Shown one piece after another: positions 9,798 through 26,208 of a DNA stretch of 53,351 nt. Source of the DNA: a virus; UHGV virus genome UHGV-0304279; one strand, written 5' to 3'. The translations under genes were made by a program, and so were the position numbers. The notes below the pieces were generated by a model. The model saw only the letters and a program-made list of their open reading frames with translations. It searched no databases and was not told the DNA's origin. Within the stretch, counting starts at the first letter, position 1. Each line of letters starts with the position of its first letter.

Positions 9798-10988
9798 ATG
9801 CTTACGGACACCAGGTTAAGGACCATCGCCAACAAGCCATACGACGGCCCAGGCGAGATAGCTGATCGTGATGGCCTGTCAGCCAGGATAAGCCCAAAAG
9901 GGAAAATTACTTTCCAGTACCGTTACAGATTCAACGGTAAGCCAGTGCGAATGAAGATCGGCGAGTACGGGAAAATGAGTCTGAAAGACGCCCGCTACGC
10001 GGTGGCTGAATACAGGGAGTTGCTTACGAAAGGGAAGAATCCGGCACTGTGCGTAAAGCAGGCCATAGCCTTTGAGCAGGGCAAGCGATCTATATCCGAC
10101 GTAGTGGAAGACTATCTATCCCTGCCGAACGTCATTAAGCTGGTGGCATATAAAGAAGTCAAAAGCGCATTGATGCGCCACGTAGTCAACAAGTACGGCG
10201 ACTACATAGCTGACGACGTAACGACAAAACAGTGGATGGATATATTTGGCGAGATCACGAAGGCGGGGCACGCCGTTACGGCAGGTTTGATATTGAAGCG
10301 AATGAAAATCATCGTTAACAGCGCAATCAGGCGCGGGATAATGACTAACACAGCGATAAACAATATCCGTGTAGCTGACGTTGGCGAGCATTATGCTGTG
10401 GGTGAACGTTACCTATCATGCGAGGAAATAGGCCACTTCTGGCGTACTGTAGACAGTTCGCAGATCTATCCGCAGAACAAAATAGCCTTAAAGCTATTGT
10501 TGCTCACCGGGTGCAGGGTGGGAGAATTACAGAAAATGAGAAGGGAACACCTGGACCTGGACAACGGTGTGTGGACCGTTCCGGCGGCGGTGGCGAAGAC
10601 AAGAAGTGAAATCAGGCGGGGATTATCTGACTTGTCGATAAAAATGCTCAGGGAGGTGTTAGCCTCCCATGAGTATGATTATGTGTTCCCGCCAGTGATT
10701 AACGGCGGCAACAGGCCAGTAAACGCATCGGTGATAAAGGTTGCTGCAATCTTCGTGCGTAAAAGGATGGGCGGTAAATCATGGTCCTGTCACGACCTCC
10801 GCAGGACGTGCCGGACACACCTTTCGGCTATAGGTGTCCCAGTACATATTGCAGAAAAGATCTTAGGCCATTCATTAAGGGGAATACTGGCGGTGTACGA
10901 CAAATACGATTATCTTGACGAACAAAAGGAGGCACTAAATAAGTTTGCTGATTATGTATTATCTTTAGCTGACGTTAAACCAATCTGA
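9798..10988 (+). CDS. int: tyrosine integrase (P4-like)
   Basis: Catalytic motifs TGCRVGEL (Arg), HDLRRT (His-x-x-Arg), LGHS (His), AVYDKY (Tyr); N-terminal arm-binding-like domain; RBS GGGGG before ATG 9798. Confidence 0.9.
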   Translation: MLTDTRLRTIANKPYDGPGEIADRDGLSARISPKGKITFQYRYRFNGKPVRMKIGEYGKMSLKDARYAVAEYRELLTKGKNPALCVKQAIAFEQGKRSISDVVEDYLSLPNVIKLVAYKEVKSALMRHVVNKYGDYIADDVTTKQWMDIFGEITKAGHAVTAGLILKRMKIIVNSAIRRGIMTNTAINNIRVADVGEHYAVGERYLSCEEIGHFWRTVDSSQIYPQNKIALKLLLLTGCRVGELQKMRREHLDLDNGVWTVPAAVAKTRSEIRRGLSDLSIKMLREVLASHEYDYVFPPVINGGNRPVNASVIKVAAIFVRKRMGGKSWSCHDLRRTCRTHLSAIGVPVHIAEKILGHSLRGILAVYDKYDYLDEQKEALNKFADYVLSLADVKPI

Positions 10989-11182
10989 TCAAAGAACTGC
11001 ATCACGTCCTGATAGCGGTACATAACGCCACGCCCGGTCCCAAGTGCATCAACAGGGGCCGGAAATGGAGTGCCGTTCCGTTCCCACTTTTTACGCCATA
11101 AGTAAAATGTCCCCCTGCTAATTCCACCAAGCATCCGGCAGATGGCAGGGCGACTAAGAAGTATTGTTCCGGTTTTATCCAT
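10952..11182 (-). CDS. xis: excisionase / AlpA-like DNA-binding protein
   Basis: 76 aa, convergent with and overlapping the int 3' end; HTH-like segment ICRMLGGISRGTFYLWRKK; RBS GGGAGGT. Confidence 0.65.
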   Translation of the reverse strand: MDKTGTILLSRPAICRMLGGISRGTFYLWRKKWERNGTPFPAPVDALGTGRGVMYRYQDVMQFFDQIGLTSAKDNT

Positions 11183-11838
11183 TATTTACCTCCCGTGTAT
11201 TCAACGTGTCCGATACATCCATCAATAATAGCTTGCGCCATATTGCGATAATCGCACGAAAACTCATTGTCGCGGTCAAAGCAAATCTCTTTCGCTGCGT
11301 CTTCACCGATAACCTTAGTAGCCAGTGCGAACGCAATTTCAGCCAGTGCTTTTTCTTTCGGATCAACGTATAAAAAATAATTATAAAAACCCCATTCAAT
11401 AGCATTTTCTTTCAGTATGCTGCCTTTTTCAGTGTATACCCCGTATTTATCACCGATAAATTTAAACATTACAATCCCAATGAGATAGCCATCAGGATAA
11501 TAACACTCCAACCACACGCCGCACGGCGGCTTTTCTCCTGGTTTCCATTCCGTTACTTCCGGTTTATCGCAATCATGCCGCTCATCTTCGATTAATTCAT
11601 CAATGATTTCACTTTCTTTATTCATGCCATCATCATCTTTATTAGATAAATTAGCATATTTATCAAACTTCCAGCTTGCCGCCATAACAGAATAAGTGCC
11701 GCCAGTATCAGCGCGAACGCCAAAAAGGAAAGATGATCCATATTGGTATTCGCTGCGGTATGTAGCAACCTCAAAAGAAGGGTAAATTTCTGGATTTGTA
11801 CGATGGCGAATTATGCCAATTGCTTTAAGTTTGTTCAT
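11182..11838 (-). CDS. hypothetical protein (accessory, unknown function)
   Basis: 218 aa, RBS GAGGT; coupled to xis. Confidence 0.5.
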   Translation of the reverse strand: MNKLKAIGIIRHRTNPEIYPSFEVATYRSEYQYGSSFLFGVRADTGGTYSVMAASWKFDKYANLSNKDDDGMNKESEIIDELIEDERHDCDKPEVTEWKPGEKPPCGVWLECYYPDGYLIGIVMFKFIGDKYGVYTEKGSILKENAIEWGFYNYFLYVDPKEKALAEIAFALATKVIGEDAAKEICFDRDNEFSCDYRNMAQAIIDGCIGHVEYTGGK

Positions 11839-12045
11839 TTATTTTACCTCAATAATATTTCCGTTTTTGGTTGGAATAACTTTCCATTCATTAACAGGAA
11901 TAAAATATTCAGGATTATTTTCAATCTCATGTTTTAAATGTGCGTAACATATTCGCCATTCCATAGCCTTGTCGTTCAGGTAATAAACATCGTCACCATC
12001 AATCTGATACAAAATACCAGTAGGTTTTGCTTTATAAAATTTCAT
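11839..12045 (-). CDS. hypothetical protein
   Basis: 68 aa; start overlaps the ninB stop (TAATG). Confidence 0.4.
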   Translation of the reverse strand: MKFYKAKPTGILYQIDGDDVYYLNDKAMEWRICYAHLKHEIENNPEYFIPVNEWKVIPTKNGNIIEVK

Positions 12046-12476
12046 TATTGACCCCAGCGTTTTATGAATTCATCGTTTAATTTCGTGTCACCAGACCACT
12101 GAACACCATGTTCAGCGCCGAACGAATATATCAATTCGATTAGTTCGCTGAATTCTGATTTACTCATTCGACTGGTGGATGTTCCCAATACAACGAAGCC
12201 TGATTTATCCAGGTTGGGGACGACGCCATATTTCTTAAGCCCGGCAGTAAATACCGCTTTCCAGTCTTCCGGCGACAGCTTCTTGCCGTACCAATTAACC
12301 TGATCGCTAACGTCTGTTAGCAGCGCCCAAAACAATGCATTTTGGCTTAGCGAGCGGGTTTTCTCCTGAATGGTAATTATCAGCGGGCTTTTGCTATCAG
12401 GCTGGATCTCCCTTATCTGCCTGATAGCGTTTTCTTTTACTGCGTCGTTTACTATTTCAAATCTTATTTGCCTCAT
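12045..12476 (-). CDS. ninB: recombination protein NinB
   Basis: Resembles lambda NinB throughout (ITIQE..RSL.QN...WA.L.DVS.QV.W.G..L..E.WK.VFTA.LK...VVPNL...GFVV.G.STSRM). Confidence 0.8.
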   Translation of the reverse strand: MRQIRFEIVNDAVKENAIRQIREIQPDSKSPLIITIQEKTRSLSQNALFWALLTDVSDQVNWYGKKLSPEDWKAVFTAGLKKYGVVPNLDKSGFVVLGTSTSRMSKSEFSELIELIYSFGAEHGVQWSGDTKLNDEFIKRWGQ

Positions 12477-12670
12477 GATACACCATTACTATTTTTCCAT
12501 TGCGCCCGCGCATACATGATCGCCCATAAAGAAATTAGTCTTGAACTAGACATAAAATCGTTTTTAAGTTTTTTCATATCAATGACGACAGGGCGATCAG
12601 GATCATCTCCGCGCATGTATTCCGCAATCGTGCTCAGGTCTTCAACAGTTAAATCAAGTTCTTTATCCAT
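12473..12670 (-). CDS. hypothetical protein
   Basis: 65 aa; RBS GAGGTGAG; stop overlaps the ninB start. Confidence 0.4.
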   Translation of the reverse strand: MDKELDLTVEDLSTIAEYMRGDDPDRPVVIDMKKLKNDFMSSSRLISLWAIMYARAQWKNSNGVS

Positions 12671-12678
12671 AACTCACC

Positions 12679-12885
12679 TCACACAATGCGCATTGTGTTT
12701 CGTAATTCACCGCGCAGCGCCTGTAACGCTTCACGAATTGGAACAAAAACCCGTTTAAATTTTACGTGTCTGTACTTGCGCATAAGTGGAGGTGTATAAA
12801 CCATCGCGCCGCGAGAATCGCACGGGAAACGGAAATGTGATTCATCAATGAATGTTTCAACTGAATAAAAGATTACCCGTCTCAT
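12679..12885 (-). CDS. hypothetical protein
   Basis: 68 aa; coupled to the upstream gene. Confidence 0.35.
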   Translation of the reverse strand: MRRVIFYSVETFIDESHFRFPCDSRGAMVYTPPLMRKYRHVKFKRVFVPIREALQALRGELRNTMRIV

Positions 12886-13439
12886 AATTCTAACCCCGTT
12901 TCGCTGTTAAGTTTTTCGATTTCAAATACTGGTTTATCCGGCAGCAGGCCGTTTTTTCTCCGGTATTCGTTAAGGCGGCTGTCAAAATCAAACGCAAGAT
13001 CATTAGCGTGACCGAAGCGCCCAGGCTTAAACAGTGAGTAAAAATTAAGTCCGTGTTTATTGGTATCAATGCAAAGCGTTTCATCAAGGACCATTAAACG
13101 CAGAGTGCGAGAAAGATAATTCCACGGGATACCAGTTTCAGCGCTAATGTCACGCATACGTTTTTTGACGCTGTAGTCACTAAATAACGCCGCCACACGA
13201 TCACGACGTTGTGCATACAAATATTTAATCCGATACCCAAGCAAGCGGCGGCGCGGTCCGAAATATGTATAGACGCGCTCTACAATACCGCTATCTATTA
13301 AGTGTTTAATTGTCTCAGGCAAGCATCCTGCTTCGTCATATTCCGCTGATAATCCTGTTTTCTGGCGTAACTGCTGCATTGTGTCGATGCCATCCAGTTC
13401 AAGGATGTTGATAATTTTTGTTTCAAGTTCAATGCTCAT
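12882..13439 (-). CDS. hypothetical protein
   Basis: 185 aa from ATG 13439 with RBS GAGG; the track ORF extends to a GTG at 13475. Confidence 0.45.
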   Translation of the reverse strand: MSIELETKIINILELDGIDTMQQLRQKTGLSAEYDEAGCLPETIKHLIDSGIVERVYTYFGPRRRLLGYRIKYLYAQRRDRVAALFSDYSVKKRMRDISAETGIPWNYLSRTLRLMVLDETLCIDTNKHGLNFYSLFKPGRFGHANDLAFDFDSRLNEYRRKNGLLPDKPVFEIEKLNSETGLEL

Positions 13440-13518
13440 TGTTTTTAGCCTCAATTTAAGCGCGAAAACAGCCACCAGAAAGCGGTAAACTTTCCGGTAA
13501 GCCGTTTGCTCAAGTTAA

Positions 13519-14940
13519 TTAAAAAGATGCTTTATTCTGGTTGTTTCGTGGCGAGAATCGGCTTACCGCCGGACGTTGTTGCATTGACTGGATGCAAGCT
13601 GACGCCGCGCGGGCCTGGTCACACGGTAATATGTTGCCGTTGTCGTCAAAACGCTGGTAAACAGTCCCGGTTTTTCCGTGACGGTTTTTTGAAACGATAA
13701 TCTCCATGTATTCGCGTGCAACAGATTGTTCGTTGTAGTAGCCGTCGCGGTATACCATGATGATCCGGTCTGCGTCCTGTTCAAGATTGCCGGAATCGCG
13801 CAGATCAGAATTGTTCGGTCGCTTGTTCGGTCGTTCCTCGACGCGGCGGGATAATTGCGCCAGCGCCGCCACTGGTACGCGCAATTCTTTCGCCATCATT
13901 TTCAACGACCATGATAATTGCCCTACAGCGAGATCATGACGTTCGGCCTTAGCCAGCTTCATTAACCCGATGTAGTCAATCATTACCATACCCAGGTTAG
14001 GGTGATCCTGTTTCATTCGTTCGGCGGTGGCGCGTATTTCCTCGACCGTTAACTGTGATGCGTCAACAATCCATACTTCAAGATCAGCAAGTGCGCTCAT
14101 ACCCTGGGCTACGTGCGCCCATCCTTCATCATCAAGTTTTACCGGGTTACGCAGGCAATCAGTTGATAAGTTCCCAGCGCCAGCTATAGCGCGTTCGGTC
14201 ATTTGATCAAGCGACATTTCAAGCGTAAAGAGCAAAACACCGACCCGCTGGCCTTCGCCGCCAGGGTAGGGGCGTTCAGCCGCCGAGCGGGCTATTGCTA
14301 ACGCTAACGCTGATTTGCCAGACCCAGGACGTCCGGCGATAAGCACAAGATCAGTGGCGTTAATGCCGCCTAACATTTCGTCGAGTGGTTCTATCCCTGT
14401 TTTTATGTTGTCAGAATTGACACCGCATTCCATGCGCTTACTTAAAACTTCCGTGTACTCCTGTACTGCGTCGCGCAACAGTACCGGAAGGATCTTGTCT
14501 TTCGTTACCTTTAATTTTGAATACCGGGAATCAAAATCCTTCATCGTCTCCTTGACAACCTCAAGCGTCCCCGTTTCCAGCTTGTAGCGAACGTCTTCCA
14601 TTAGCTCCAGCATTTGCCGCCGCTGGTGTTCTTCCTGTAGTAGCTGCGCGTACCCTTTCAGGTTGGCAGCAGAAGGACACGATCGCGCCGTTTGCATTAG
14701 CGGTATGAAATTTTCGTTACCGATTTCATCACCAACCAATAACGCGTCGATAAGATTTCTGTTTCTGGCTTGCGCCCTGATGATTTCGAACGCGCGCCTG
14801 TACAGAGGAATAGTGAATACATCAGGATCGAGTGTAGCAAGAACATCTTGCGCGTTAGGAGTAAGCCCGCCTAACAGGAGGCCACCTATAACAGCCGCTT
14901 CGCGCTCCTGCCGCAATGAGTTTACTTGCTCAGTTATCAT
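13519..14940 (-). CDS. replicative DNA helicase (DnaB family)
   Basis: Walker A GRPGSGKS, DnaB-like N-terminal domain, RecA-like core; RBS GAGGT. Confidence 0.9.
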   Translation of the reverse strand: MITEQVNSLRQEREAAVIGGLLLGGLTPNAQDVLATLDPDVFTIPLYRRAFEIIRAQARNRNLIDALLVGDEIGNENFIPLMQTARSCPSAANLKGYAQLLQEEHQRRQMLELMEDVRYKLETGTLEVVKETMKDFDSRYSKLKVTKDKILPVLLRDAVQEYTEVLSKRMECGVNSDNIKTGIEPLDEMLGGINATDLVLIAGRPGSGKSALALAIARSAAERPYPGGEGQRVGVLLFTLEMSLDQMTERAIAGAGNLSTDCLRNPVKLDDEGWAHVAQGMSALADLEVWIVDASQLTVEEIRATAERMKQDHPNLGMVMIDYIGLMKLAKAERHDLAVGQLSWSLKMMAKELRVPVAALAQLSRRVEERPNKRPNNSDLRDSGNLEQDADRIIMVYRDGYYNEQSVAREYMEIIVSKNRHGKTGTVYQRFDDNGNILPCDQARAASACIQSMQQRPAVSRFSPRNNQNKASF

Positions 14941-14958
14941 TATGGCATTACCTCATGT

Positions 14959-16077
14959 TTACAAAATGGAATATTCAGGGTAATAAACAAAGCGCCCAAT
15001 TTCTCCATGAGCCGGGCTGTAAATAATCACCGCCGCCAGCCGCCGTGAACGCCAGCCGCCATTCGTCGAGTAAGCATCTTTGCCAGCTAACGTTCCGTGA
15101 TACTCGACAACGCCTAACGATGATTCAATCAGCCGCTGGTGATGCCAGTGTCCGCAATGAGCGTAAACCGACGACGATTTACCGAAATCCTCCCGCCAGT
15201 CAGAAACACAGGCAGCAAGTAAGGTTTCTGGTTTTTTGATGGTGTGTCCGTGGTGGTAAGCAAGGAATGTTTTTCCGTATTGTGTGTGGTGGACGATAGC
15301 AGGGGACACATCAACCGTTACGCGCGGTTCATCTTCGTAAAAAGCCGCCAGCGCCGCACGTAGCCAAATCATCCCCGACTGATCGTGATTGCCGGATAAC
15401 ACCTGGATCTCGACGCCCTTATGGTTTAACAACATTTTCCCCACCGCACGCCGGACCGACCGGATCGCCACATAAACAAGTTTTGCGTAGCGTGAATCGC
15501 AATCTAAGACGTGATTACTTGATGGCGTCACTGGTAATAGCCCGTCCGTGTGAAGCACATCACCGCCGAGAAGCAATACAGCTTTTTCAGACGTTGGTGC
15601 AGCGCCTACAGCGTAGTCAAAGAAGTCATTTAACACGCGTTCAGCGATCCCGGTGTCGTAGCTTTCTCCGCATTCAGCTTTATGCGCAAGCGCCCCGATA
15701 TGCAGATCGAATACCGGATAAAGGGCCAGGCTTTTCTGAAAATCAATTTCCGGCACTGGCACGGCTTCCGCGCGCGGCATTTCTTCCGTAAATGCGTCAC
15801 AAGCTGCCTGCATTAGCCTTTCCATTTCCTCACGGTCACGGGCCGTTTTAATCCAGCGCATGATTACATTGCCATCTTTATCAACGAGCAATGATTCACC
15901 ATTGACACCAAAACCCGGCGCGCGGCGCGTGGATATTAAACCGCGTTTCGCCAGCCGTGCGCCCAGGCGCTCGACGTTGCGTTTTGCCATGCCGTACTTC
16001 TCAGCGATCTGTTTATACGTCAGGCCGCTGTTATGTTCAGCGATTAATTCCTCATCGCTGATCTTTCTTTGTGACAT
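14959..16077 (-). CDS. HTH domain fused to calcineurin-like metallophosphoesterase (SbcD/Mre11-type motifs)
   Basis: N-terminal LTYKQIAEKYGMAKRNVERL HTH; phosphoesterase motifs DLHIG, GGDVLH, GNHD, GHWHH; ATG at 16077 with RBS GAGGA. Confidence 0.6.
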   Translation of the reverse strand: MSQRKISDEELIAEHNSGLTYKQIAEKYGMAKRNVERLGARLAKRGLISTRRAPGFGVNGESLLVDKDGNVIMRWIKTARDREEMERLMQAACDAFTEEMPRAEAVPVPEIDFQKSLALYPVFDLHIGALAHKAECGESYDTGIAERVLNDFFDYAVGAAPTSEKAVLLLGGDVLHTDGLLPVTPSSNHVLDCDSRYAKLVYVAIRSVRRAVGKMLLNHKGVEIQVLSGNHDQSGMIWLRAALAAFYEDEPRVTVDVSPAIVHHTQYGKTFLAYHHGHTIKKPETLLAACVSDWREDFGKSSSVYAHCGHWHHQRLIESSLGVVEYHGTLAGKDAYSTNGGWRSRRLAAVIIYSPAHGEIGRFVYYPEYSIL

Positions 16078-16206
16078 AACGTTATTCCTCATGTTTACAG
16101 AATGTATATTTATTTTCCGTAAAACGCGCTACAACGCAAAATCCCACCGCGTAACCCACTTGTAAGAGTGCAGTGTCTTTCTTGCGTCAGAGGCGCTATC
16201 AGGTGG

Positions 16207-16440
16207 CTATTTTTTGATTTTTAAGATGACATAAACGTTAGCTTGTTGGCGTCCATGCAATTTACTCCTGCAAATGGCTATTACTCCGGCCTGTTCCAGA
16301 GATCGGATCGCTAGCTTAACACTTTGCCGACTCACTCCCAACCTGTCAGCAAGCATGATAAGTGATATTTGATAACCTCCCGTCCGGCAATGCACAGCCA
16401 GCAGATCGTAAACTTTACGCTCAGTTTTGGTTAATTTCAT
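16207..16440 (-). CDS. small winged-helix DNA-binding protein
   Basis: 77 aa with HTH-like segment LADRLGVSRQSVKLAIRSLEQAGVI. Confidence 0.45.
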   Translation of the reverse strand: MKLTKTERKVYDLLAVHCRTGGYQISLIMLADRLGVSRQSVKLAIRSLEQAGVIAICRSKLHGRQQANVYVILKIKK

Positions 16441-16567
16441 GAAAAGCCCTTAAACGCTCTATAACGAAGAAAACGCATTAAGCCAAGCAAGTCTAGCACT
16501 TGATATGTTTTATCGCGTTAGTGGCGCGTTTAAGTGGGTTATTTGGGGTTTTTGTGAAGCTTGGTAG

Positions 16568-17560
16568 TCAAAGAGCGCCAGCGCGGGTGTCGCGTAGCGT
16601 TTTTGGTTTTAGTAAGAAATCTAGTGTCGCAGTGAAGCCATTGCCGAAGTAAAAATCTGAGGCCGTATTTTTGAACGCTTCGAAGTAGCTGATAAAGCCT
16701 TTGATGCTTTTATCTTTCAGGTAGTCAGAGAACGCATAAATTTTACGTTCCAGATCCCGATCAAGTTCAGCAGGTGGTAACAGGCCATCAAACGTGCTGT
16801 TAAATGCTTCCACTACGTCGGCGGCGTTTACAGTAGCTGATAGCTTGCGCCATTGTTCAGCATCAGCCAGATACCCATCGAATTTAGTTACCCGGCAAAT
16901 GTTAATAGGCTTAGGCACTCCACCACGACTACGCCATTGAGTCAAAGCCCATTCAATTACTAATGTGATCTCATCCTCCGTATATGCCTTACGTGTTTTT
17001 GTTTCTGTCAGTAGTTCGATAAATGGTTTTGCGTCACGACATTTGCATCCTGCCTTGTCGTTGTAGAAGGCTAGGCAACGCAATGCTGCCAAATTAGCCG
17101 CCTGATCTTCTTCGCTAATAGGCCCGTCTTTTTCCAATACACGGAGTGTATTGTTTTTAATGTTCTCTTTACTGGTTATATATGACTGATTAGGGTGTCT
17201 CTCTGACACTACCCCCGGTGTCACAGTGACACTACCCTGGTGTCTCTCTGACACTACCCCCGGTGTCTCTCTGACACTACCCTGTAATGATGGTAAGACG
17301 ATTACATAGAAGTTACTTGTTTGCTCTTTTCCTCCTATTAGATATCGAGGTTGCTTAATCAATAACCCTTTCTCACAAAGAGCATCAATAGCCCGCATAG
17401 CTGTGCTTTTGCCTATTTCGCATTGCTTTGCTATGTGCTGGTAAGAAGGGTAACATTCGCCGTTATCGTTAGCGTTATCAGCCAACTTTAACAGCACAAG
17501 TTTGTGCATTGGGTTGCCGACTTCAGTATGAAAGACTTCAACCATTAGCCGCATACTCAT
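16568..17560 (-). CDS. replication initiator (lambda O-like) with internal origin
   Basis: N-terminal winged-helix segment (YPSYQHIAKQCEIGKSTAMRAIDALCEKGLL); iterons embedded in the coding sequence as in lambda ori; ATG 17560 with RBS GGAGG. Confidence 0.7.
   Translation of the reverse strand: MSMRLMVEVFHTEVGNPMHKLVLLKLADNANDNGECYPSYQHIAKQCEIGKSTAMRAIDALCEKGLLIKQPRYLIGGKEQTSNFYVIVLPSLQGSVRETPGVVSERHQGSVTVTPGVVSERHPNQSYITSKENIKNNTLRVLEKDGPISEEDQAANLAALRCLAFYNDKAGCKCRDAKPFIELLTETKTRKAYTEDEITLVIEWALTQWRSRGGVPKPINICRVTKFDGYLADAEQWRKLSATVNAADVVEAFNSTFDGLLPPAELDRDLERKIYAFSDYLKDKSIKGFISYFEAFKNTASDFYFGNGFTATLDFLLKPKTLRDTRAGAL
17194..17283 (+). repeat. origin of replication iterons (four copies of about 22 bp)
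   Basis: Four tandem copies of GGTGTC(TCTCT/ACAGT)GACACTACCC(C/T), each with inverted repeat GTGTC..GACAC, inside the initiator gene. Confidence 0.75.
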
Positions 17561-17782
17561 AAACATTGGCCTCCTATGGTTAAAATGAACGCGCGGGCGG
17601 GTATCCAATTAGCATTAGATAGCGGTGAGTGACCGCTTAACAGATCCCGCCGTTGCGTGATATTTGTCTTTCGCTTCGCAGCGACACCGGATTTTTAAAG
17701 AGCATGAGGTATGCGCCTTTTTGTGCTATTCCGTTATCTTTTTTCTTGCGTCTTTGCAACTATGGCCTTACCTTGTCTGCAA

Positions 17783-17868: not shown

Positions 17869-18516
17869 ATGAAAACAAAATGGTATGACTTAGCAAAGCA
17901 GCTCATGCGAGCGCAAGGCATGAGCCAGGATTCACTCGCGGATCTCATGGGGATAACTAAAGGCGGCCTGTCACACTGGCTTAACGGTCGCCGCGAGCCA
18001 AATCTTGAAGATATTGCGCGGATTATGCGGGCACTTGGTCGTCGGCAGTTCACTGTTACCCATGATGGAATGGTCATTGATGATTCTGTTTCTAACACGT
18101 TACCGGGAGCGCCGCAGCGTGATTTAGGCAGTTACCCGGTTGTTGACTGGAAGGACACAGTAAACAATATGGAAGATACAAGGCGATCAACATTACCACA
18201 CGTTACGACTAGCGTTATTTGTTCAGATGATAGTTACTGGCTGGTTGCTAAAGGTGAATCAATGAACGCGCCGCAGGGGTTGAGCATCCCTGCCGGGACG
18301 ATGATACTTGTTGACCCACACGCGCCAGCTATCGATGGAAAGCTGGTTATAGCACAGCTTGAGGAAGGGCAAATACCGACGTTTAAACAGTTGATTATTG
18401 ATGGAGGTCAAAGGCTTTTACGTTCGCTTAACCCGCTGTATCCACCAATCCCCATGAATCCTGAATCGAAAATCATAGGCGTGGTGGTGGACGCGAAGAT
18501 CGTAAACCTGCCATAA
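17869..18516 (+). CDS. CI-like repressor (HTH XRE plus S24 LexA-like peptidase domain)
   Basis: N-terminal HTH (SQDSLADLMGITKGGLSHWLNGRR); C-terminal S24-like segment with GESM and a later Lys; 215 aa. Confidence 0.8.
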   Translation: MKTKWYDLAKQLMRAQGMSQDSLADLMGITKGGLSHWLNGRREPNLEDIARIMRALGRRQFTVTHDGMVIDDSVSNTLPGAPQRDLGSYPVVDWKDTVNNMEDTRRSTLPHVTTSVICSDDSYWLVAKGESMNAPQGLSIPAGTMILVDPHAPAIDGKLVIAQLEEGQIPTFKQLIIDGGQRLLRSLNPLYPPIPMNPESKIIGVVVDAKIVNLP

Positions 18517-18522
18517 AAAATT

Positions 18523-18547
18523 AGCCGCCGAATGGCGGCTTTTCTTT
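18523..18547 (+). terminator. rho-independent terminator after the repressor gene
   Basis: AGCCGCC-gaat-GGCGGCT followed by TTTCTTT. Confidence 0.7.
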
Positions 18548-18626
18548 GCCCTGAAAACACCAAAACGTAAACATAAAACGTGTTTTATTATTTAAATATC
18601 AATGACATATAAAATATTTTAAAAAA

Positions 18627-18669
18627 GTATACAAAATGGATTGACTCGGTGTATCACGGGGCGTATATT
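18627..18669 (+). promoter_or_regulatory. candidate sigma70 promoter of the rightward operon with upstream motif copy
   Basis: -35 TTGACT (18641-18646), 17 bp spacer, -10 TATATT (18664-18669); motif GTATACAAAATGG immediately upstream. Confidence 0.5.
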
Positions 18670-18804
18670 TCGAGGCAAAGGAGGTAGCAAGGCAGGGGAA
18701 AGAAGGTTACTTGCTCTTTAACAATCTGGTCAGCCGCTGGAAGTGCGGCAATTAATGAAGATGATTTTTATTAAGTATCATCATGGATATAAGGAGATCA
18801 GATT

Positions 18805-19095
18805 ATGACCGTAACAATTATGTATGGCAAATGTGATAGCAAAATAAATGCCAGGGAACGCAGAAGAATAAAAAGAGAAAACGAAAGAAAATCATCACCT
18901 GCAATCAATAAAACTGACAATGTTGATAAAGCTATTCGTTTTGCAAACGTAGAAAGATGCAAACCGAATGGCATTAAAGAGCATCGCAAAGGTGCGGCAA
19001 AATGGTATGCGGAAAACGAAAGCGGCAATTACTACCACGCAACACAACCGCGTAGTCTAGGGGAAAAACCCCTGGATAAAGTACGCTACAGATAA
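18805..19095 (+). CDS. hypothetical basic protein
   Basis: RBS AAGGAG 8 nt before ATG; first gene of the rightward operon. Confidence 0.45.
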   Translation: MTVTIMYGKCDSKINARERRRIKRENERKSSPAINKTDNVDKAIRFANVERCKPNGIKEHRKGAAKWYAENESGNYYHATQPRSLGEKPLDKVRYR

Positions 19096-19244
19096 TACAA
19101 AATGTAAACTTTCAAAGGTGACATTATGGTTGTTCAGGCGCTTCAATTCAAACTGGCTGTAGCGGAAATGCTTCACGATGCCGAAATGTGGAGCACCGCG
19201 AATAAAGCTTTATATGTAGTGTTAACAGCGAGGGAGATTAAAGG

Positions 19245-19886
19245 GTGAAAACAGAATTACATAAAAAGCTGTGGACTATTCAGCAGACGCTGAATGCGCC
19301 GAAAAGTCAGCGCAATAATTTTGGCGGTTATAATTATCGTTCGGCCGAAGATATTTTAGAGGCAGTTAAACCACTGCTTCAAAATATCACTCTGACGGTA
19401 AGTGATGAAATCGTCTTAATTGGCGAACGCTATTACGTGAAAGCTACGGCGACACTAAGTGACGGTGAGGACGCGATAGCGGTAACTGCTTACGCAAGGG
19501 AGGAAGAGAATAAGAAGGGAATGGATGCAAGCCAGCTAACAGGAGCAACATCAAGTTACGCGCGGAAATATGCTTTGAACGGTTTATTCTGCATAGACGA
19601 TGCAAAAGACGCGGATACTGATGCTTACAGTAAGCAGACAGGCCAGCAGCCTAGACAGCAGAAAAACCAGCCAAAACAACAACAGCAGAAGCAGAAAGCG
19701 CCGCCAAATCCTGATGAAGTGTTAGCGCGTTTCTGTGATGCAGCAGCGAAAGCGCCGGACGCTAACAAGTTGCGTGAAATATTCGGTAAATGCTGGAAAT
19801 TACTGCCGGAAGGATCGGAGCATCGAGTTAAAGCAAAAGATGTTTATGACATCCGGATCGCAGAGCTTAATGGGGAGATGAGCTAA
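19245..19886 (+). CDS. erf: single-strand annealing recombinase Erf (P22 Erf-like)
   Basis: Strong resemblance to P22 Erf (NAPK, Y.YRS.EDILE.VKPLL, ISDEIVLIG.RYYVKATAT, AREEENKKGMDA.Q.TGATSSYARKY.LNGLF.IDDAKDAD); GTG start with RBS GAGGGAG. Confidence 0.85.
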   Translation: MKTELHKKLWTIQQTLNAPKSQRNNFGGYNYRSAEDILEAVKPLLQNITLTVSDEIVLIGERYYVKATATLSDGEDAIAVTAYAREEENKKGMDASQLTGATSSYARKYALNGLFCIDDAKDADTDAYSKQTGQQPRQQKNQPKQQQQKQKAPPNPDEVLARFCDAAAKAPDANKLREIFGKCWKLLPEGSEHRVKAKDVYDIRIAELNGEMS

Positions 19887-20290
19887 TGAGTTTAAATTCA
19901 ATCACGCTTGGCGGGAATATCGGAAACGACATGGAAGTACGCTATACGCAAAACGGGAAGTCGATTGGTAGTTTTCCGTTAGCTGTAACGAATGGCTACG
20001 GCGATAATAAGCGGACGATGTGGATCACTTGCCTGGTATTCGGTGAGCGAGCGGAAAAATTAGCGCCGCATATCCGCAAGGGTGGAAAGATAGTGGTAAG
20101 CGGTCGCCTGGATGTTCGGCAATATGACCGGAACGATGGCACGAAGGGTACGGCGGTAGAAGTGGCGGTTAACGAATTCGAATTCATGAACGTTAACCAG
20201 CAAGGCCAGCAGCAGAAAGCGCCACCGCCGCAGCAGAATAACAACGGGAATAATCCTCCGATGGACTTTGACGACGACATCCCGTTTTGA
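19886..20290 (+). CDS. ssb: single-stranded DNA-binding protein
   Basis: OB-fold-like N-terminus, Gln/Gly-rich linker, acidic C-terminal tail DFDDDIPF. Confidence 0.9.
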   Translation: MSLNSITLGGNIGNDMEVRYTQNGKSIGSFPLAVTNGYGDNKRTMWITCLVFGERAEKLAPHIRKGGKIVVSGRLDVRQYDRNDGTKGTAVEVAVNEFEFMNVNQQGQQQKAPPPQQNNNGNNPPMDFDDDIPF

Positions 20291-20305
20291 ATCAATAGGT
20301 TAGTA

Positions 20306-20584
20306 ATGGGCGATTATTTAAAAGCGCCGCCGCCACCACGAACAAAAGAGCAAGTATTAAAAGAAGCCCGCGATCAAATCGATCGGGGGCTTTTTTTATG
20401 CGGCACGGCAGCGGAACGAATGACGAAAAGATTTAGTGACCTGTACGCGAAGCAAATCTGGTTTGACAACTGGCGAGCGAGTTCTTACCCGCTACAGAAA
20501 ACTGATGATATGCAGTGGCCTGAATATGTTGATCCACGAATGCGCAAATATCGCGGGCGTATGGGCCAGGTTATTAACGATTAA
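20306..20584 (+). CDS. hypothetical protein
   Basis: ORF in operon context. Confidence 0.4.
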   Translation: MGDYLKAPPPPRTKEQVLKEARDQIDRGLFLCGTAAERMTKRFSDLYAKQIWFDNWRASSYPLQKTDDMQWPEYVDPRMRKYRGRMGQVIND

Positions 20585-20596
20585 TGAGGTATTACC

Positions 20597-20848
20597 ATGA
20601 CAGCTACAACATTAAGCGAAAATAACGGGCGCGGTTTTCAGGGGACTGCGGAAACCTCAGACGATGGTGATGTATTTGTCGAATTCGGTGGCGGTAACTA
20701 TGAATTCGAAACGTCGGCGGGCTGGCACGATAAATGGCCTTTCCCGACGCGCAAGGAATTAAGCGATCGAAAAACATTTGGCGAAGATGCCGAACGCCTG
20801 GCGAATAATAAATGGATGGATAAATTTATTGCGGAGGCTGAAAAATGA
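20597..20848 (+). CDS. hypothetical protein
   Basis: ORF in operon context. Confidence 0.4.
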   Translation: MTATTLSENNGRGFQGTAETSDDGDVFVEFGGGNYEFETSAGWHDKWPFPTRKELSDRKTFGEDAERLANNKWMDKFIAEAEK

Positions 20849-20958
20849 GTTTTGCAAAAATTGCAGCATTGGCTGCGGCGGTGGCGATCGCGGCGCTATA
20901 TCTTAGCTTATCGCTTTATATTACGGTGGCGATCATCAAGCTGATTACAACTATGTGA
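20845..20958 (+). CDS. small hydrophobic peptide (37 aa)
   Basis: ATGA overlap with the upstream stop; MSFAKIAALAAAVAIAALYLSLSLYITVAIIKLITTM; below the ORF track size cutoff. Confidence 0.35.
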   Translation: MSFAKIAALAAAVAIAALYLSLSLYITVAIIKLITTM

Positions 20959-20965
20959 GGCAATC

Positions 20966-21088
20966 ATGAGAGTCAGTAAGGATATTGTGACGGTCGCGTT
21001 TTGCGTTATTTGTTTCCTGTTTGCGGTTGTGTTTTGTGGCGCACTTGCGGCGGTGATTAGCTTTATTGGTAAGGGGGTGATGTTATGA
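20966..21088 (+). CDS. small hydrophobic peptide (40 aa)
   Basis: MRVSKDIVTVAFCVICFLFAVVFCGALAAVISFIGKGVML; stop overlaps the next start. Confidence 0.35.
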   Translation: MRVSKDIVTVAFCVICFLFAVVFCGALAAVISFIGKGVML

Positions 21089-21357
21089 CTCTGTGGGATG
21101 CAAAAGAAGGTGATCTCGTTGTCTTGCCAGCATATCGTAGTGATCTCGGGCTGGTCGTACTGAATAAAACATGTAGCGACATTCAACGCCCGATCCTGGT
21201 TAGATACTTAGACGGCACGATGATCGAACCGCGTTTCTTCGACAAAGTTGAACTGAAGGCCCGCAATGTTCGCGTTAAGCCTTTCCGGGCTTATGTTGAA
21301 AATCACTGGCGTAAATTGTTCGCCGGACTGAATGGGATGTTTGGCGTATGGCTATAA
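21085..21357 (+). CDS. hypothetical protein
   Basis: ORF in operon context. Confidence 0.4.
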   Translation: MTLWDAKEGDLVVLPAYRSDLGLVVLNKTCSDIQRPILVRYLDGTMIEPRFFDKVELKARNVRVKPFRAYVENHWRKLFAGLNGMFGVWL

Positions 21358-21539
21358 AATTAGTGAAGGTTAAACACCTGAAAGGCGGTGAAAAATTAAT
21401 GTCATGGTGGGGACATGAATTTATTGCTACTGCCTTTCATTTCGGCCCGGGTGGTCAAGTAACAATATTTGATGAAGATTACGACGAGGTGGGGCAATGG
21501 CATCTTGAGCAATATGTCGAGGTGTTAAATGAAAATTAA
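21348..21539 (+). CDS. hypothetical protein
   Basis: ORF in operon context. Confidence 0.35.
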   Translation: MAIKLVKVKHLKGGEKLMSWWGHEFIATAFHFGPGGQVTIFDEDYDEVGQWHLEQYVEVLNEN

Positions 21540-21861
21540 ATTCCACAAAGCGTATGACGCTAATACAAACAAGCTATCACTATTTATCGAATTCGAACGC
21601 CGGATCGTGGTAGCGCCCTGGTCGCGCCGCTTCAATGACGCTGGCGGGCGGCGAAAATTCGCAGTTGATATGCTGTTACGCGGCTGCGGCCTTATGCGCC
21701 CGCTATCTGACTTAAAACGAATGATGCCGGGGTCATTCGGTCAGATTGATGAAATAGAAATAAGCCCGGAAGAACTGAAACGGGAGCGTGATTTATTCCT
21801 TTCAAGCGAAGGAAACCCGTTTAATTCAGAAACTGAAATGAAATGGCATCATCCACTATAA
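21529..21861 (+). CDS. hypothetical protein
   Basis: ORF in operon context. Confidence 0.4.
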   Translation: MKIKFHKAYDANTNKLSLFIEFERRIVVAPWSRRFNDAGGRRKFAVDMLLRGCGLMRPLSDLKRMMPGSFGQIDEIEISPEELKRERDLFLSSEGNPFNSETEMKWHHPL

Positions 21862-21872
21862 GGGTAAATATT

Positions 21873-22493
21873 ATGAACAATATCAAAACGGCTTATTCAC
21901 TCGGCAGCGAAGGCATGTTAATTACTCGCTACACAGAAGACGCGAGCTTTCACGAAGTGGTAACTAAGGACTATCACGAAGTATTAAAAGATATGAACGC
22001 AGGCGCGTATGACGGTGATTTAAACCTGGCGCTACAGGTTGTTGACATTGTGATGGATGCGTCAATCCGCGATTACGTGTCTCTAAATATGGAAGAAAAA
22101 ACATCGGTAGCGCGTTATGTGTTCTGCCTCACTTTCGTAAGACGCATGGAGGAGGAATTCGGACGTGTACCAGTGCCGGAAGAACTGGACCCGCTTGCGT
22201 ATGGTAGTGCGGTAATGGTCCCGCTGGGCGACGGGGTGATGGGTAGTGCTTCATTGCATACAATCCGTGAACTGATGCGAGATAGCCTTGAAGCTGGAGT
22301 GCTTAAGAAAGCGGTAGAAGAAGGGCGCGACGCGGAAGAAGTGAAAAAATTCATGCCTGTTATTTATGGTGATATGGTCGGCGATAATATGCGGGCTAAT
22401 GATTTTGGCGTCCAGTGTTTTCTGGCGATGCTGAATGATGCCAGAAAACGTGCACAGCCAATGCCGAAACAGGAAAAACGTGTACTACATTAA
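21873..22493 (+). CDS. hypothetical protein
   Basis: ATG 21873 with RBS AAGGG; the track ORF starts at 21843. Confidence 0.45.
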   Translation: MNNIKTAYSLGSEGMLITRYTEDASFHEVVTKDYHEVLKDMNAGAYDGDLNLALQVVDIVMDASIRDYVSLNMEEKTSVARYVFCLTFVRRMEEEFGRVPVPEELDPLAYGSAVMVPLGDGVMGSASLHTIRELMRDSLEAGVLKKAVEEGRDAEEVKKFMPVIYGDMVGDNMRANDFGVQCFLAMLNDARKRAQPMPKQEKRVLH

Positions 22494-22515
22494 CAGGGTG
22501 ATCGCGAACACATAA

Positions 22516-22555
22516 ATATACATTTTGTATTGTGGTCGCATATCCGTTTTGTAAG
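22516..22555 (+). promoter_or_regulatory. intergenic motif pair
   Basis: ATATACATTTTGTAT (22516-22530) and CCGTTTTGTAAG (22544-22555). Confidence 0.35.
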
Positions 22556-22591
22556 AAGAAATCGAAAGGTTTACGGCGCGGAGAAAACAAG

Positions 22592-22810
22592 ATGGAGCGC
22601 GAATTGATGCTCTACTGTGTAGAAGGTGGTGTAGGTCACGATGCCTACGTCGCCGGGAAAAGCTATCCAGCCGATGAAGTGCTTTTTAATATGCACTTGA
22701 GAGAAAACGAATACCAGATATCCGTGTGGAAGCGATGCGTTGATGGTGTTGAAGTTGTTAGCCTTGAAAGATATTTAGGTAAATTCGACTACGGATTAAT
22801 TGAGGCTTAA
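22592..22810 (+). CDS. hypothetical protein
   Basis: ATG 22592 with RBS GGAG. Confidence 0.4.
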   Translation: MERELMLYCVEGGVGHDAYVAGKSYPADEVLFNMHLRENEYQISVWKRCVDGVEVVSLERYLGKFDYGLIEA

Positions 22811-22812
22811 CT

Positions 22813-22905
22813 ATGGACTACACATTGCTATTTATGTGTATTTGCTGGGGGGTTATTGCTTTATGTTTATTTGTCAGATGGTTTATTGAATACCATATGA
22901 GGTGA
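22813..22905 (+). CDS. small hydrophobic peptide (30 aa)
   Basis: MDYTLLFMCICWGVIALCLFVRWFIEYHMR. Confidence 0.3.
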   Translation: MDYTLLFMCICWGVIALCLFVRWFIEYHMR

Positions 22906-22908
22906 TAT

Positions 22909-23103
22909 ATGAAACAAGTTGGAGGGTACAAGTTACCGGATAACGCAAAACTTGCAGGTATAGGTTTTAGTGGTTGTTTTTATTATAACAACATTGGTGA
23001 TATTTATATCGTTAGATATATAGATGGCGAACAACATTTTCGCAAACTGCCAGATGTTGAATTAAACAAACTTATAAGAGAGGTATCATTACATGCGGTT
23101 TAA
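22909..23103 (+). CDS. hypothetical protein
   Basis: ORF in operon context. Confidence 0.4.
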   Translation: MKQVGGYKLPDNAKLAGIGFSGCFYYNNIGDIYIVRYIDGEQHFRKLPDVELNKLIREVSLHAV

Positions 23104-23296
23104 AAATTACAGAGAATGGAAAATTCCAGCAGAAGCAACAAAGGCGGCACCTGGTGATTTTTCTGGTGTTTACTTCTATATGGATGGCAAATGGTATTTC
23201 GGCAGCAGGCCTGAACACTATTACCAGGAAATATGCAAGCCTCACGTGTGGGATATTAAGGAGCGCGTGAGAGACGGAGTAATTGAGGACGTTTAA
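23093..23296 (+). CDS. hypothetical protein
   Basis: ORF in operon context. Confidence 0.4.
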   Translation: MRFKNYREWKIPAEATKAAPGDFSGVYFYMDGKWYFGSRPEHYYQEICKPHVWDIKERVRDGVIEDV

Positions 23297-23297
23297 A

Positions 23298-23534
23298 ATG
23301 TTCAAGAGCTTTTTAAACTGGTTGGGAGCGTGGCTTTTAGCCACGCTTTTTGTTTTCCTGGCGGCAGCGGCTGTTATCGTCGTTATTATGCTGGGGGCGA
23401 TTTTTATTACGTGGTCGCTGCCTGAATTTAACGACATTGGGAATATTCTTTTTGTCGCCCGCGCTTTATTGGCGGTTAGCGCATTTGTCGGGTTTTGCTG
23501 GACTGCCGCGCCAGATTGGGATGATCCGTTTTAG
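23298..23534 (+). CDS. small membrane protein (two predicted TM helices)
   Basis: Hydrophobic segments LGAWLLATLFVFLAAAAVIVVIMLGAIFI and ARALLAVSAFVGF. Confidence 0.4.
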   Translation: MFKSFLNWLGAWLLATLFVFLAAAAVIVVIMLGAIFITWSLPEFNDIGNILFVARALLAVSAFVGFCWTAAPDWDDPF

Positions 23535-23536
23535 TT

Positions 23537-23770
23537 ATGGCTTTATTCAACCTGTCAGAGCCGCAATTTAATGCCGTTAAAACTGCCGCGCGGGCGGCGC
23601 TTTCTGCCTGCAAGACAGAGGTGGAAAGAAACGGATATAGCGATAAAGCCACGCGGCTGATACTCGACAAGCATTATCGCAAGGTCGCCCCGCTAATCAG
23701 CATTGAGCGGTTTGTGTGGTTGGTGGGGTATCTGAATAACCGCTGGGGGACGGAGCAGGATTATTTCTAA
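23537..23770 (+). CDS. hypothetical protein
   Basis: ORF in operon context. Confidence 0.4.
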   Translation: MALFNLSEPQFNAVKTAARAALSACKTEVERNGYSDKATRLILDKHYRKVAPLISIERFVWLVGYLNNRWGTEQDYF

Positions 23771-23779
23771 GGGGGCGCA

Positions 23780-24313
23780 ATGAAAAATGATTACGGCGGC
23801 AGTCATACGCCGAAAGAAATAAAAGACCTATGGCAGACGCCGAAACCTGTTTTTAGAGGAATGGATCGGGAATTCGAATTCGTCGCGGACGTGGCGGCAA
23901 ACAAGGCAAATGCATTAGTTCCGCGATATATAACCGAAGAAATGAACACGCTCCATTATCCGTGGGGAGCGGTGGCGATGCCTGGTGATTATGTCTGGAT
24001 GAATCCACCATATTCTAATCCGGGGCCATTCGTTGATAAGGCGGCGCTTGAACACCACCGAAATCATATTGGCTGTGTAATGTTATTACCCGCCGACACT
24101 TCTGTTAGCTGGTTTATGAATGGCGTGGAAACGGCAAACGAATGTCGTTTAATCACGCGCGGGCGACTGGCGTTTATCAATGCTGCGACTGGTAAGCCAG
24201 TGAGCGGGAATAACAAGGGGAGCTTGTTTCTGATCTGGCATCCACGATGCAGACATGAATGTATTTTCACGCAAATAACACGTAAAGAGCTATATGCAAG
24301 AGGTGCGGAATAA
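23780..24313 (+). CDS. phage-type DNA N6-adenine methyltransferase (Dam-like)
   Basis: Catalytic NPPY motif (VWMNPPYSN) and overall resemblance to small phage N6A methyltransferases. Confidence 0.75.
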   Translation: MKNDYGGSHTPKEIKDLWQTPKPVFRGMDREFEFVADVAANKANALVPRYITEEMNTLHYPWGAVAMPGDYVWMNPPYSNPGPFVDKAALEHHRNHIGCVMLLPADTSVSWFMNGVETANECRLITRGRLAFINAATGKPVSGNNKGSLFLIWHPRCRHECIFTQITRKELYARGAE

Positions 24314-24804
24314 TGACTAAGGCAGCAGATTTATTAAGACTTGCAGCGGAAACCATAGAACAAAGAGGTAAGCAAAACGGCTACGATAAAAAAGAGGAAA
24401 AATCAGCGCCAAAAATAGCCACTATTTACAACGCTAAGAAGGGGGCCGATTTAACCCCGCTTGATGTATGGGATCTGCTAATTTGTCTCAAGGAGGCGCG
24501 TTTAGAGGCCATTTTGAGCAATGGGACAGATCCTACTGACACGCTAGTTGATTTGATTAGCTACAGCGCACTAAAAGCGGAGCAAATACTAACGGAGCGG
24601 GAGGGAGAACAAAGAAAGAAAAAGGCTGTTTTTGATATGCCGTTAAATTGCGGCTGTAAGAATGCCTCAATACCAGGCGACTTGATCGCCAGCAGCAAGG
24701 TGACGCTAAATGGTGTCCTTTCAAAAAGGCTTGATGTGAAGTGCGATAACGAATCACTACTACGCGCGGCGGGGTATCATAAAAATGAAAAGGGTGACGA
24801 TTGA
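24313..24804 (+). CDS. hypothetical protein
   Basis: Translationally coupled (ATG overlaps the upstream stop). Confidence 0.45.
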   Translation: MTKAADLLRLAAETIEQRGKQNGYDKKEEKSAPKIATIYNAKKGADLTPLDVWDLLICLKEARLEAILSNGTDPTDTLVDLISYSALKAEQILTEREGEQRKKKAVFDMPLNCGCKNASIPGDLIASSKVTLNGVLSKRLDVKCDNESLLRAAGYHKNEKGDD

Positions 24805-26049: not shown

Positions 26050-26050
26050 A

Positions 26051-26131
26051 GTTTACAAAATGGCGTCATTGTGTGATGAGGATCACATAATGGCGCTTTG
26101 CACCTTGTTTGCGTGTATCCGTTTTGTATAC
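26051..26131 (+). promoter_or_regulatory. intergenic regulatory region with motif copies and a CRP-like palindrome
   Basis: GTTTACAAAATGGC (26051-26064); TGTGA-N6-TCACA (26072-26087); CCGTTTTGTATAC (26119-26131) with -35-like TTGTTT and -10-like TATACT. Confidence 0.4.
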
Positions 26132-26208
26132 TTCAAACAAACAAAATGCTCTTTAAAAATCCGGTAACGCTGAAATGCGTAGAAATCACCTGAAAAGGAG
26201 AGAGCATT

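Follow-up and report, generated by a model that had tools for sequence, protein, structure and literature searches.

A PHROG 704 metallophosphoesterase with a predicted helix-turn-helix, encoded directly upstream of DnaB in a temperate Escherichia coli phage, is a candidate DNA-directed nuclease

Metallophosphoesterases (MPEs) of the Mre11/SbcD type (Escherichia coli SbcD, P. furiosus and M. jannaschii Mre11, and T4 gp47) carry a capping domain and have a Rad50/SbcC partner. Phosphodiesterases of the MJ0936/YfcE type and of class III (CpdA, Rv0805, and GpdQ) are small, single-domain proteins with small-molecule substrates and no DNA-binding domain. Cluster A mycobacteriophages encode, amid their replication genes, a stand-alone MPE (Bxb1 gp47, A10ZJ24 Gp48; PHROG 221), and A10ZJ24 Gp48 is reported to be active as a phosphodiesterase and as a DNase, breaking down the DNA of its host (PMC12287305). 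Closest of all are phage proteins of PHROG 704 (Citrobacter phage Stevie gp37 and its counterparts in Klebsiella Webervirus and Salmonella Jerseyvirus). Here we analyse a PHROG 704 member encoded in UHGV virus genome UHGV-0304279 (53,351 nt; 'the window' refers to this whole stretch of DNA). The protein is, as predicted from its sequence, a helix-turn-helix (HTH) domain fused to an intact metal-dependent phosphoesterase. It differs from Mre11/SbcD in having neither capping domain nor partner, with an HTH instead, and it is unlike the small-molecule phosphodiesterases in their single-domain build. It shares with the Cluster A proteins a stand-alone MPE encoded amid replication genes, but those proteins have no HTH, have motif I at residue 10, and belong to PHROG 221, not 704. 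With its PHROG 704 relatives it shares the order HTH-hairpin-MPE and the invariant residues, at 45-67% identity, but the genes of the relatives have lysis or nucleotide-kinase genes for neighbours, or belong to a tail-region islet, whereas the gene analysed here is encoded in the replication operon, directly upstream of DnaB. We favour the reading, with a probability of roughly 45%, that the protein is a DNA-directed nuclease that acts in replication, recombination, or host-DNA breakdown.

The gene and the parts of its product occupy the following window positions:

14959..16077, minus strand: HTH-metallophosphoesterase gene, 372 aa (open reading frame (ORF) and translation, phrog_704 match, AlphaFold2 model, MPE-fold matches)
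15946..16056, minus strand: predicted N-terminal HTH of GerE/LuxR/sigma-70 region-4 type, residues ~8-44 (model helices and HTH profile matches)
15787..15912, minus strand: family-specific beta-hairpin (residues 56-80) and helix (residues 82-97) preceding the catalytic core (model secondary structure, conservation)
14983..15738, minus strand: metallophosphoesterase core, residues ~114-365 (motifs I-V)

The ORF at 14959..16077 is a genuine gene, on a strand (minus) that the original prediction had left unstated. Its ATG at 16077 is preceded by a Shine-Dalgarno sequence, GAGGAA; an alternative in-frame ATG upstream, at 16092, would yield 377 aa, and the start at 16077 is preferred because close homologues are 372 aa long. 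The Escherichia phage MagusPhagus is a close relative, with an HTH-MPE protein 96.8% identical to that of the window, and phrog_704 ('DNA repair exonuclease') is matched end to end by the translation (E 8.9e-137), whose residues 4-368 align with positions 2-387 of the 390 in the profile.

The catalytic core contains all ligands of the five-motif superfamily pattern (DxH, GD, GNH[D/E], H, GHxH): motif I, D124-x-H126; motif II, G172-D173-x-x-H176; motif III, G229-N230-H231-D232; motif IV, H276 (in HHGH); and motif V, G309-H310-x-H312. The strings DLHIG, GDVLH (as GGDVLH), GNHD, and GHWHH, on which the original prediction was built, are all present in the translation, as is HHGH. In an alignment of 57 cluster representatives that are 30-57% identical to the target, D124, H126, G172, D173, N230, H231, H276, G309, and H312 are invariant; H176, D178, D232, H278, and H310 are at least 90% conserved; the metal-ligand motif residues (D124/H126, G172/D173, N230/H231/D232, H276, G309/H310/H312) are each invariant or at least 96% conserved; and H176, the histidine of GDxxH, is likewise at least 96% conserved. 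A conserved loop covers residues 179-197 and includes T184, P185, D192, D194, and R196. Because this conservation extends over 57 representatives of only 30-57% identity, the motif strings are not chance occurrences. The beta-alpha-beta-alpha-beta sandwich fold of calcineurin-like metallophosphoesterases is present. The target does not match the Pfam Metallophos models (PF00149/PF12850) even at E ≤ 1, and 15 of the 57 relatives match them below threshold (best 2.7e-5); the family has diverged too far for these models to recognise, and the assignment rests on fold and motifs. The signature of lambda phosphatase and the PPP family (GDxHG, GDxVDRG, GNHE) is not found in the target.

An AlphaFold2 model of the target, built with 57 homologues (pLDDT 80.1, pTM 0.72), has four parts: three helices (residues 8-44), a beta-hairpin (56-80), a helix (82-97), and the alpha/beta core (114-365). 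The three N-terminal helices (8-16, 21-28, and 32-44) form what is predicted to be an HTH of the DNA-binding type. In the target itself the HTH falls short of Pfam thresholds (IclR/Rrf2 HTH, E 2e-3 to 4e-3); relatives match HTH profiles more strongly (Sigma70_r4_2, 1.5e-9; GerE, 2.4e-8), with such matches in the N-terminal region coming from subsets of the family, and the family profile matches GerE in the PDB (1fse, E 0.008). The fusion of an HTH to a calcineurin-like phosphoesterase, as originally proposed, is therefore upheld by modelled helices, by profile matches of relatives, and by the fold of the core. Nearly all members have an N-terminal extension, and the hallmark architecture of the family is a median of 141 aa before motif I and about 65 aa after motif V. 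Certain members have an N-terminus too short for an HTH; the hairpin and helix are kept in members without HTH (for example P0246, which aligns from query residue 69), and W75, in the hairpin, is nearly invariant across the family.

The original prediction described the enzyme domain as Mre11/SbcD-like, and this part of it finds weak support. Structure comparison gives similar scores for SbcD, Mre11, MJ0936, PolD DP1, and LpxH, with SbcD and Mre11 among the best matches. The MPEs in the PDB that are reached by the family sequence profile are nucleases only, all at non-significant values (SbcD, E 0.58; Mre11, E 1.6; P. putida 'Nuclease MPE', E 1.7), and hhalign of the family profile against E. 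coli K-12 proteins is likewise non-significant for SbcD (probability 3.7%, 15 columns), CpdA (3.5%), and LpxH (0.2%). H176 is presumably the counterpart of the histidine in Mre11 GDLFH, a correspondence that serves as a lead only. A canonical Mre11/SbcD orthologue, working with the Rad50/SbcC ATPase of the host or with an unrecognised one of the phage, would account for SbcD and Mre11 standing among the best structural matches and for theirs being the sole kind of MPE that sequence profiles reach. However, the target ends about 60 aa past motif V, its model has no additional C-terminal domain, and both the capping domain and the C-terminal Rad50-binding region are thus absent, as the family norm of about 65 aa after motif V would also indicate; a bona fide phage SbcD appears only at rank 49 among viral structure matches; and no SbcC/Rad50-like ORF is present in the window among the ORFs of more than 500 aa and the early-region ORFs, the former all aligning with MagusPhagus tail-fibre, tape-measure, and tail genes, and the latter giving Erf, SSB, methyltransferases, NinG, and Q in the PHROGs scan. 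We therefore reject the canonical SbcD/Mre11 assignment, which we regard as exceedingly improbable: there is no capping domain, there is no partner gene, and the profile matches are non-significant.

The gene belongs to a known and widely annotated phage family, and the only thing unusual about it is a fixed coupling to DnaB in one temperate lineage. Searches with tblastn find the family in 2,042 deposited phage genomes, including those of T1-like Drexlerviridae (of Escherichia, Klebsiella, Shigella, and Citrobacter), of Salmonella Jerseyvirus, and of Vibrio, Rhodobacter, Ruegeria, Yersinia, and Thermus phages; distant Vibrio, Rhodobacter, and Thermus homologues also match PHROG 704. Searched exhaustively with HMMER, 1.84 billion cluster representatives yield 4,287 clusters (at 50% identity) with E ≤ 1e-3 and 912 with E ≤ 1e-30. 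In Drexlerviridae the gene has been reported as persistent (core) in 508 of 522 genomes (PMC13164509). Novelty is not supported: the family is already PHROG 704, annotated in about 2,000 deposited phage genomes. Members are deposited under many names, among them hypothetical protein, putative phosphoesterase, DNA polymerase II small subunit, oxidoreductase, winged-HTH protein, and, in Salmonella Jerseyvirus, HTH-type regulator/nuclease SbcD, and among RefSeq E. coli genomes it is a 'hypothetical protein' in 33 of 35 and a 'metallophosphoesterase family protein' in 2 of 35. Standard domain annotation is effectively blind to the family, and 'DNA repair exonuclease' is an automated label, with no assay found behind the name.

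That DNA is the substrate is our inference, as are the function assigned to the HTH and the pathway in which the protein takes part. The inference about the substrate draws on a near-universal N-terminal extension that, where it can be scored, is a predicted HTH; on the presence of nucleic-acid enzymes among the best structural neighbours; on neighbouring genes whose products act on DNA or on deoxynucleoside 5'-monophosphates (5'-dNMPs), the products of Mre11-type exonucleases; on the residence of the gene in DNA-metabolism operons; and, by analogy only, on the A10ZJ24 Gp48 precedent (PMC12287305). Also in favour of a DNA-directed nuclease are the nucleases reached, at non-significant values, by the sequence profile, the conservation of H176, the persistence of the gene in Drexlerviridae, and its close linkage to DnaB in the window. 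According to the mechanism we propose, the HTH would hold the enzyme on DNA, and the two-metal centre would hydrolyse DNA phosphodiester bonds, so that the protein would work alone as a nuclease, independently of Rad50/SbcC and of ATP. Its role in phage DNA metabolism would be the processing of ends or structures for recombination-linked replication, the breakdown of DNA to 5'-dNMPs for reuse in phage DNA, or both. In the temperate E. coli lineage the gene and that of the phage-encoded DnaB have become a fixed module. Roles in replication or primer processing and in counter-defence, as originally suggested, are possibilities.

The genomic surroundings of the family bear on this proposal. The comparison drew on 192 loci, taken from IMG/VR and from annotated phages; their MPE proteins fell into 46 lineages at an identity cut-off of 70%, and we clustered all neighbours within six genes without recourse to annotation. 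A nucleotide-metabolism family (dATP/dGTP pyrophosphohydrolase-like, HAD hydrolase, or dNMP kinase) is present within six genes in 8 of the 46 lineages. Individual cases include a PNK-like gene and a dNMP kinase in Yersinia vB_YenM_646, a nucleotidase and a dNMP kinase in Thermus Lalka27a, a dNMP phosphatase in Ruegeria V11, and a HAD hydrolase and a dNMP kinase in Webervirus. Overall, the recurrent neighbours are dNMP kinase, HAD nucleotidase or PNK-like protein, dNMP phosphatase, dATP/dGTP pyrophosphohydrolase-like protein, VRR-NUC, helicase, and DNA methyltransferase (see also PMC13164509). As a separate observation on these surroundings, in 7 of 46 lineages the MPE gene is followed directly by an HNH homing endonuclease gene (for example L004:6181-6690 and L065), and homing elements seem to have inserted repeatedly into the 3' flank of the gene.

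Several points weigh against a DNA-directed nuclease. Our literature searches on PHROG 704 members turned up no biochemical or genetic study. T1-like phages carry exonuclease VIII, Erf, and SSB besides the PHROG 704 gene, which would make a further recombination exonuclease superfluous in them. Lysis genes are the most frequent neighbours (20 of 46 lineages), and a nuclease does not explain them except as an operon-boundary effect. In the family alignment the HTH diverges faster than the enzyme domain (22% vs. 39% identity), and DNA binding is a prediction only. The Gp48 precedent, finally, is an analogy within the superfamily, because profile comparisons are non-significant and the PHROGs differ: Bxb1 gp47, which stands in for the Gp48 family, maps to phrog_221, and hhalign of the 57-representative alignment against a 30-sequence gp47 profile gives a probability of 3.8% (E 0.011). 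Specific homology to Bxb1 gp47/A10ZJ24 Gp48 was rejected on these grounds, a single-sequence hhalign hint (E 0.0014) having been lost in the profile-profile test.

The same motifs and neighbours could also be accommodated by an enzyme that acts on small molecules or RNA ends: that is, a phosphodiesterase that cleaves cyclic or oligonucleotide immune signals (of CBASS, Pycsar, type III CRISPR, or Thoeris-type systems) or 2',3'-cyclic phosphate ends, and that serves in counter-defence or RNA repair, with the HTH in a regulatory or auxiliary role. GNHD and GHxH motifs are common to class III cyclic nucleoside monophosphate phosphodiesterases. In several phages the next gene downstream encodes a PNK-like protein or a HAD 3'-phosphatase (see also PMC13164509), and mycobacteriophage D29 Gp66 is referred to as a 2',3'-cyclic nucleotide phosphodiesterase (cited as reference 48 in PMC9038960). 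However, nearly all members have the fused N-terminal region with its predicted DNA-binding HTH, and we know of no signal-degrading anti-defence enzyme with a fused HTH. The gene is, moreover, core in Drexlerviridae (the 508 of 522 genomes of PMC13164509) rather than variable accessory cargo, and the hhalign probability for CpdA is only the 3.5% given above. PADLOC gave weak matches to the HTH region only (E 0.04) and nothing for the MPE domain, and a defence or anti-defence relationship by that route was rejected. We consider a small-molecule or RNA-end phosphodiesterase unlikely.

The position of the gene next to DnaB raises a different question: that is, whether the protein serves the helicase. 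The neighbouring features, in the order in which they are read on the minus strand, are:

16568..17608, minus strand: O-like replication initiator, mosaic (HTH_36, 4.8e-15; phrog_428)
16207..16440, minus strand: 77-aa MarR-type winged-helix ORF, variable cargo (Pfam MarR_2, 6e-7)
16083..16099, minus strand: upstream copy of a direct repeat (TGTAAACATGAGG...; exact 13-mer at 16087-16099), carrying the Shine-Dalgarno sequence of the MPE gene
14947..14963, minus strand: downstream copy of the TGTAAACATGAGG repeat (exact at 14951-14963), overlapping the TAA stop of the MPE gene and carrying the Shine-Dalgarno sequence of DnaB
13519..14940, minus strand: DnaB-family replicative helicase (PF03796, 3.9e-76; TIGR00665)
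12882..13475, minus strand: 197-aa MarR-like or Ren-like protein, just downstream of DnaB (phrog_1687)

The gene order on this strand is initiator, 77-aa ORF, MPE gene, DnaB, 197-aa MarR-like protein, small ORFs, and NinB. The placement between an O-like initiator and DnaB in one operon, as first described, is therefore correct, except that the MPE gene does not directly adjoin the initiator, because the 77-aa MarR-type ORF lies between them. DnaB begins 18 nt after the stop codon of the MPE gene. No promoter-like or terminator-like site is predicted on the minus strand from initiator to DnaB, and a terminator-like hairpin is predicted after DnaB; because no such sites are predicted between the two genes, the MPE gene is probably co-transcribed with DnaB. 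The TGTAAACATGAGG 13-mer occurs twice, exactly, flanking the ORF (about 19 of 21 positions match when flanks are included), and a variant, TGTAAACCGGAGG, is likewise paired in most of 28 related loci; the repeat could be a cassette-insertion scar or a translational control element common to both genes. GC content is 51.7% in the MPE gene and 50.9% in DnaB, against 43-45% in the flanking genes and 46.4% in the window, and this GC-richer block suggests that the pair may have been acquired, or maintained, as a single module.

Comparison across related prophages shows that the pair stays together while the genes upstream of it change. The initiator is mosaic: its C-terminal ~190 aa are conserved (84-92%) in most related prophages, and its N-terminal DNA-binding half is swapped. 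The genes between initiator and MPE gene are likewise swapped (loci L009-L031), the 77-aa MarR-type ORF being found only in the window and in one near-identical contig (L008). In the temperate lineage, 30 of 30 loci have both the MPE gene and DnaB, and 35 of 5,426 complete E. coli genomes carry MPE gene and DnaB, in the same genomes and always adjacent, at 84-99% nucleotide identity. As a side observation on the same operon, the 197-aa phrog_1687 protein has two allelic forms at the same position in related prophages, with identities of >82% or ~34%.

A protein accessory to the phage DnaB, which would aid loading, remodel the origin, or process primers or ends at the fork, and would fill the slot of lambda P, is what the 18-nt gap, the translation-initiation repeat common to both genes, the GC-richer block, and the unbroken linkage (35 of 35 E. 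coli genomes and 30 of 30 other loci, while the upstream initiator is swapped) would lead one to propose. Bxb1 gp47, also an MPE, is said to be required for Bxb1 DNA replication. Outside the temperate lineage, however, the association is not maintained. DnaB is a direct neighbour in 1 of 46 lineages, the window's own, and a DnaB-family helicase lies 7-12 genes upstream in 4 of 46. No DnaB is present within 10 kb in ~50 T1-like loci that have 55-67% identical orthologues, and a tblastn search of one complete genome of the T1-like Webervirus, whose orthologue is 61% identical, found no DnaB homologue (best E 4.4). Furthermore, the catalytic centre is invariant, which argues for an enzyme and not an adaptor, and the conserved C-terminal half of the initiator would be the more conventional candidate for helicase contact. 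We read the locus as a cassette that became fixed ahead of DnaB in a single lineage and do not take the linkage as a sign that PHROG 704 proteins in general serve DnaB, and we judge a replication accessory to DnaB distinctly unlikely.

The narrower proposal that the gene fills a helicase-loader slot does not survive. Loaders of the lambda P, DnaC, and DnaD types resemble it in gene position between initiator and helicase only, with no detectable similarity in sequence or fold. Pfam, PHROGs, NCBIfam, and structure searches of the target found no lambda P, DnaC/IstB AAA+, or DnaD domain, and the fold that was found is that of an MPE; neither of the two outcomes that were to refute the original prediction was thus observed. 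Phages with their own DnaB-type helicase need not carry a loader of the lambda P type, as in the gene 18/12 replicon of P22, and the phage of the window has its own DnaB. The adjacency is lineage-specific, and T1-like carriers of 61-67% identical orthologues lack DnaB. We conclude that the protein is not a helicase loader.

The lysis genes that a DNA-directed nuclease leaves largely unexplained point to another alternative. An endolysin family (phrog_7) lies within six genes in 17 of 46 lineages, mostly 3-4 genes downstream on the same strand, and any lysis family (endolysin, holin, or spanin-like) lies within six genes in the 20 of 46 cited above. The gene is found near the lysis cassette, usually upstream and on the same strand, across unrelated phages (for example L002, L004, L005, L006, and L192). 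Q occupies that pre-lysis position in lambdoid phages. A transcription factor (for example, a regulator of late genes or lysis timing), with its HTH on phage promoters and its MPE domain as sensor or effector, would fit this Q-like position (see also PMC13164509), as well as an HTH of GerE/sigma-70 region-4 type and the fast divergence of that HTH, as expected if it followed lineage-specific operators. However, all metal ligands are invariant, and catalysis is therefore the argued selected function; some members have an N-terminus too short for an HTH; the phage of the window has its own Q-like antiterminator (27587-28309), and its MPE gene is far from its lysis genes; and the operon-boundary position may be incidental. 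We regard a transcription factor as highly unlikely.

To return to a DNA-directed nuclease, a more ambitious form of that reading would make PHROG 704 a class of self-targeting, Rad50-independent phage nucleases, in which a rapidly diverging HTH directs an Mre11-like site to specific DNA for an essential step that otherwise dissimilar phages have in common (destruction of the host chromosome to supply dNMP salvage, or processing of the genome timed to precede lysis), and which here would have been captured as an obligate DnaB partner in a helicase-nuclease replication module. We put this forward as a speculation with the odds well against it.

The gene is in itself ordinary: thousands of phages carry it and annotation pipelines label it. 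It is a core gene of T1-like phages, and Jersey-like phages, those of Vibrio, Rhodobacter, Ruegeria, and Thermus, and E. coli prophages carry it too, under a name that no experiment backs, and many of the phages that carry it are used or proposed for therapy. Deciding between host-DNA degradation, processing of replication intermediates, destruction of immune signals, and late-gene regulation would fill a real gap in phage biology. Biochemical work on PHROG 704 in general would be worthwhile, and the temperate lineage offers a convenient genetic system: that is, an inducible prophage in which the gene is hard-wired to DnaB.

The phage of the window is a temperate siphophage close to MagusPhagus. 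The strand opposite to the replication operon encodes an S24/LexA-type repressor, Erf, SSB, two DNA methyltransferases, NinG/Rap, and the Q-like antiterminator. Among the window ORFs tested there is no lambda Exo or RecE, although Erf, SSB, NinB, and NinG are present. The idea that the MPE might be the missing exonuclease partner of Erf is weakened by the T1-like phages, which have exonuclease VIII, Erf, and SSB as well. Lambdoid phages do not usually have such an arrangement of genes: repressor, Erf, SSB, methyltransferases, NinG, and Q-like gene, followed by lysis and structural genes, lie on one strand (17869-28309, plus), and the replication operon (10952-17608, minus) runs the opposite way, converging on the tail-fibre genes. 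Finally, a 163-aa ORF at 24313-24804 (plus strand) matches PHROGs labelled 'phosphofructokinase' (phrog_474), and in Bxb1 a gene two positions from the gp47 MPE (L193:1961-2515) bears the same label, which is probably a propagated misannotation of a DNA-metabolism protein.

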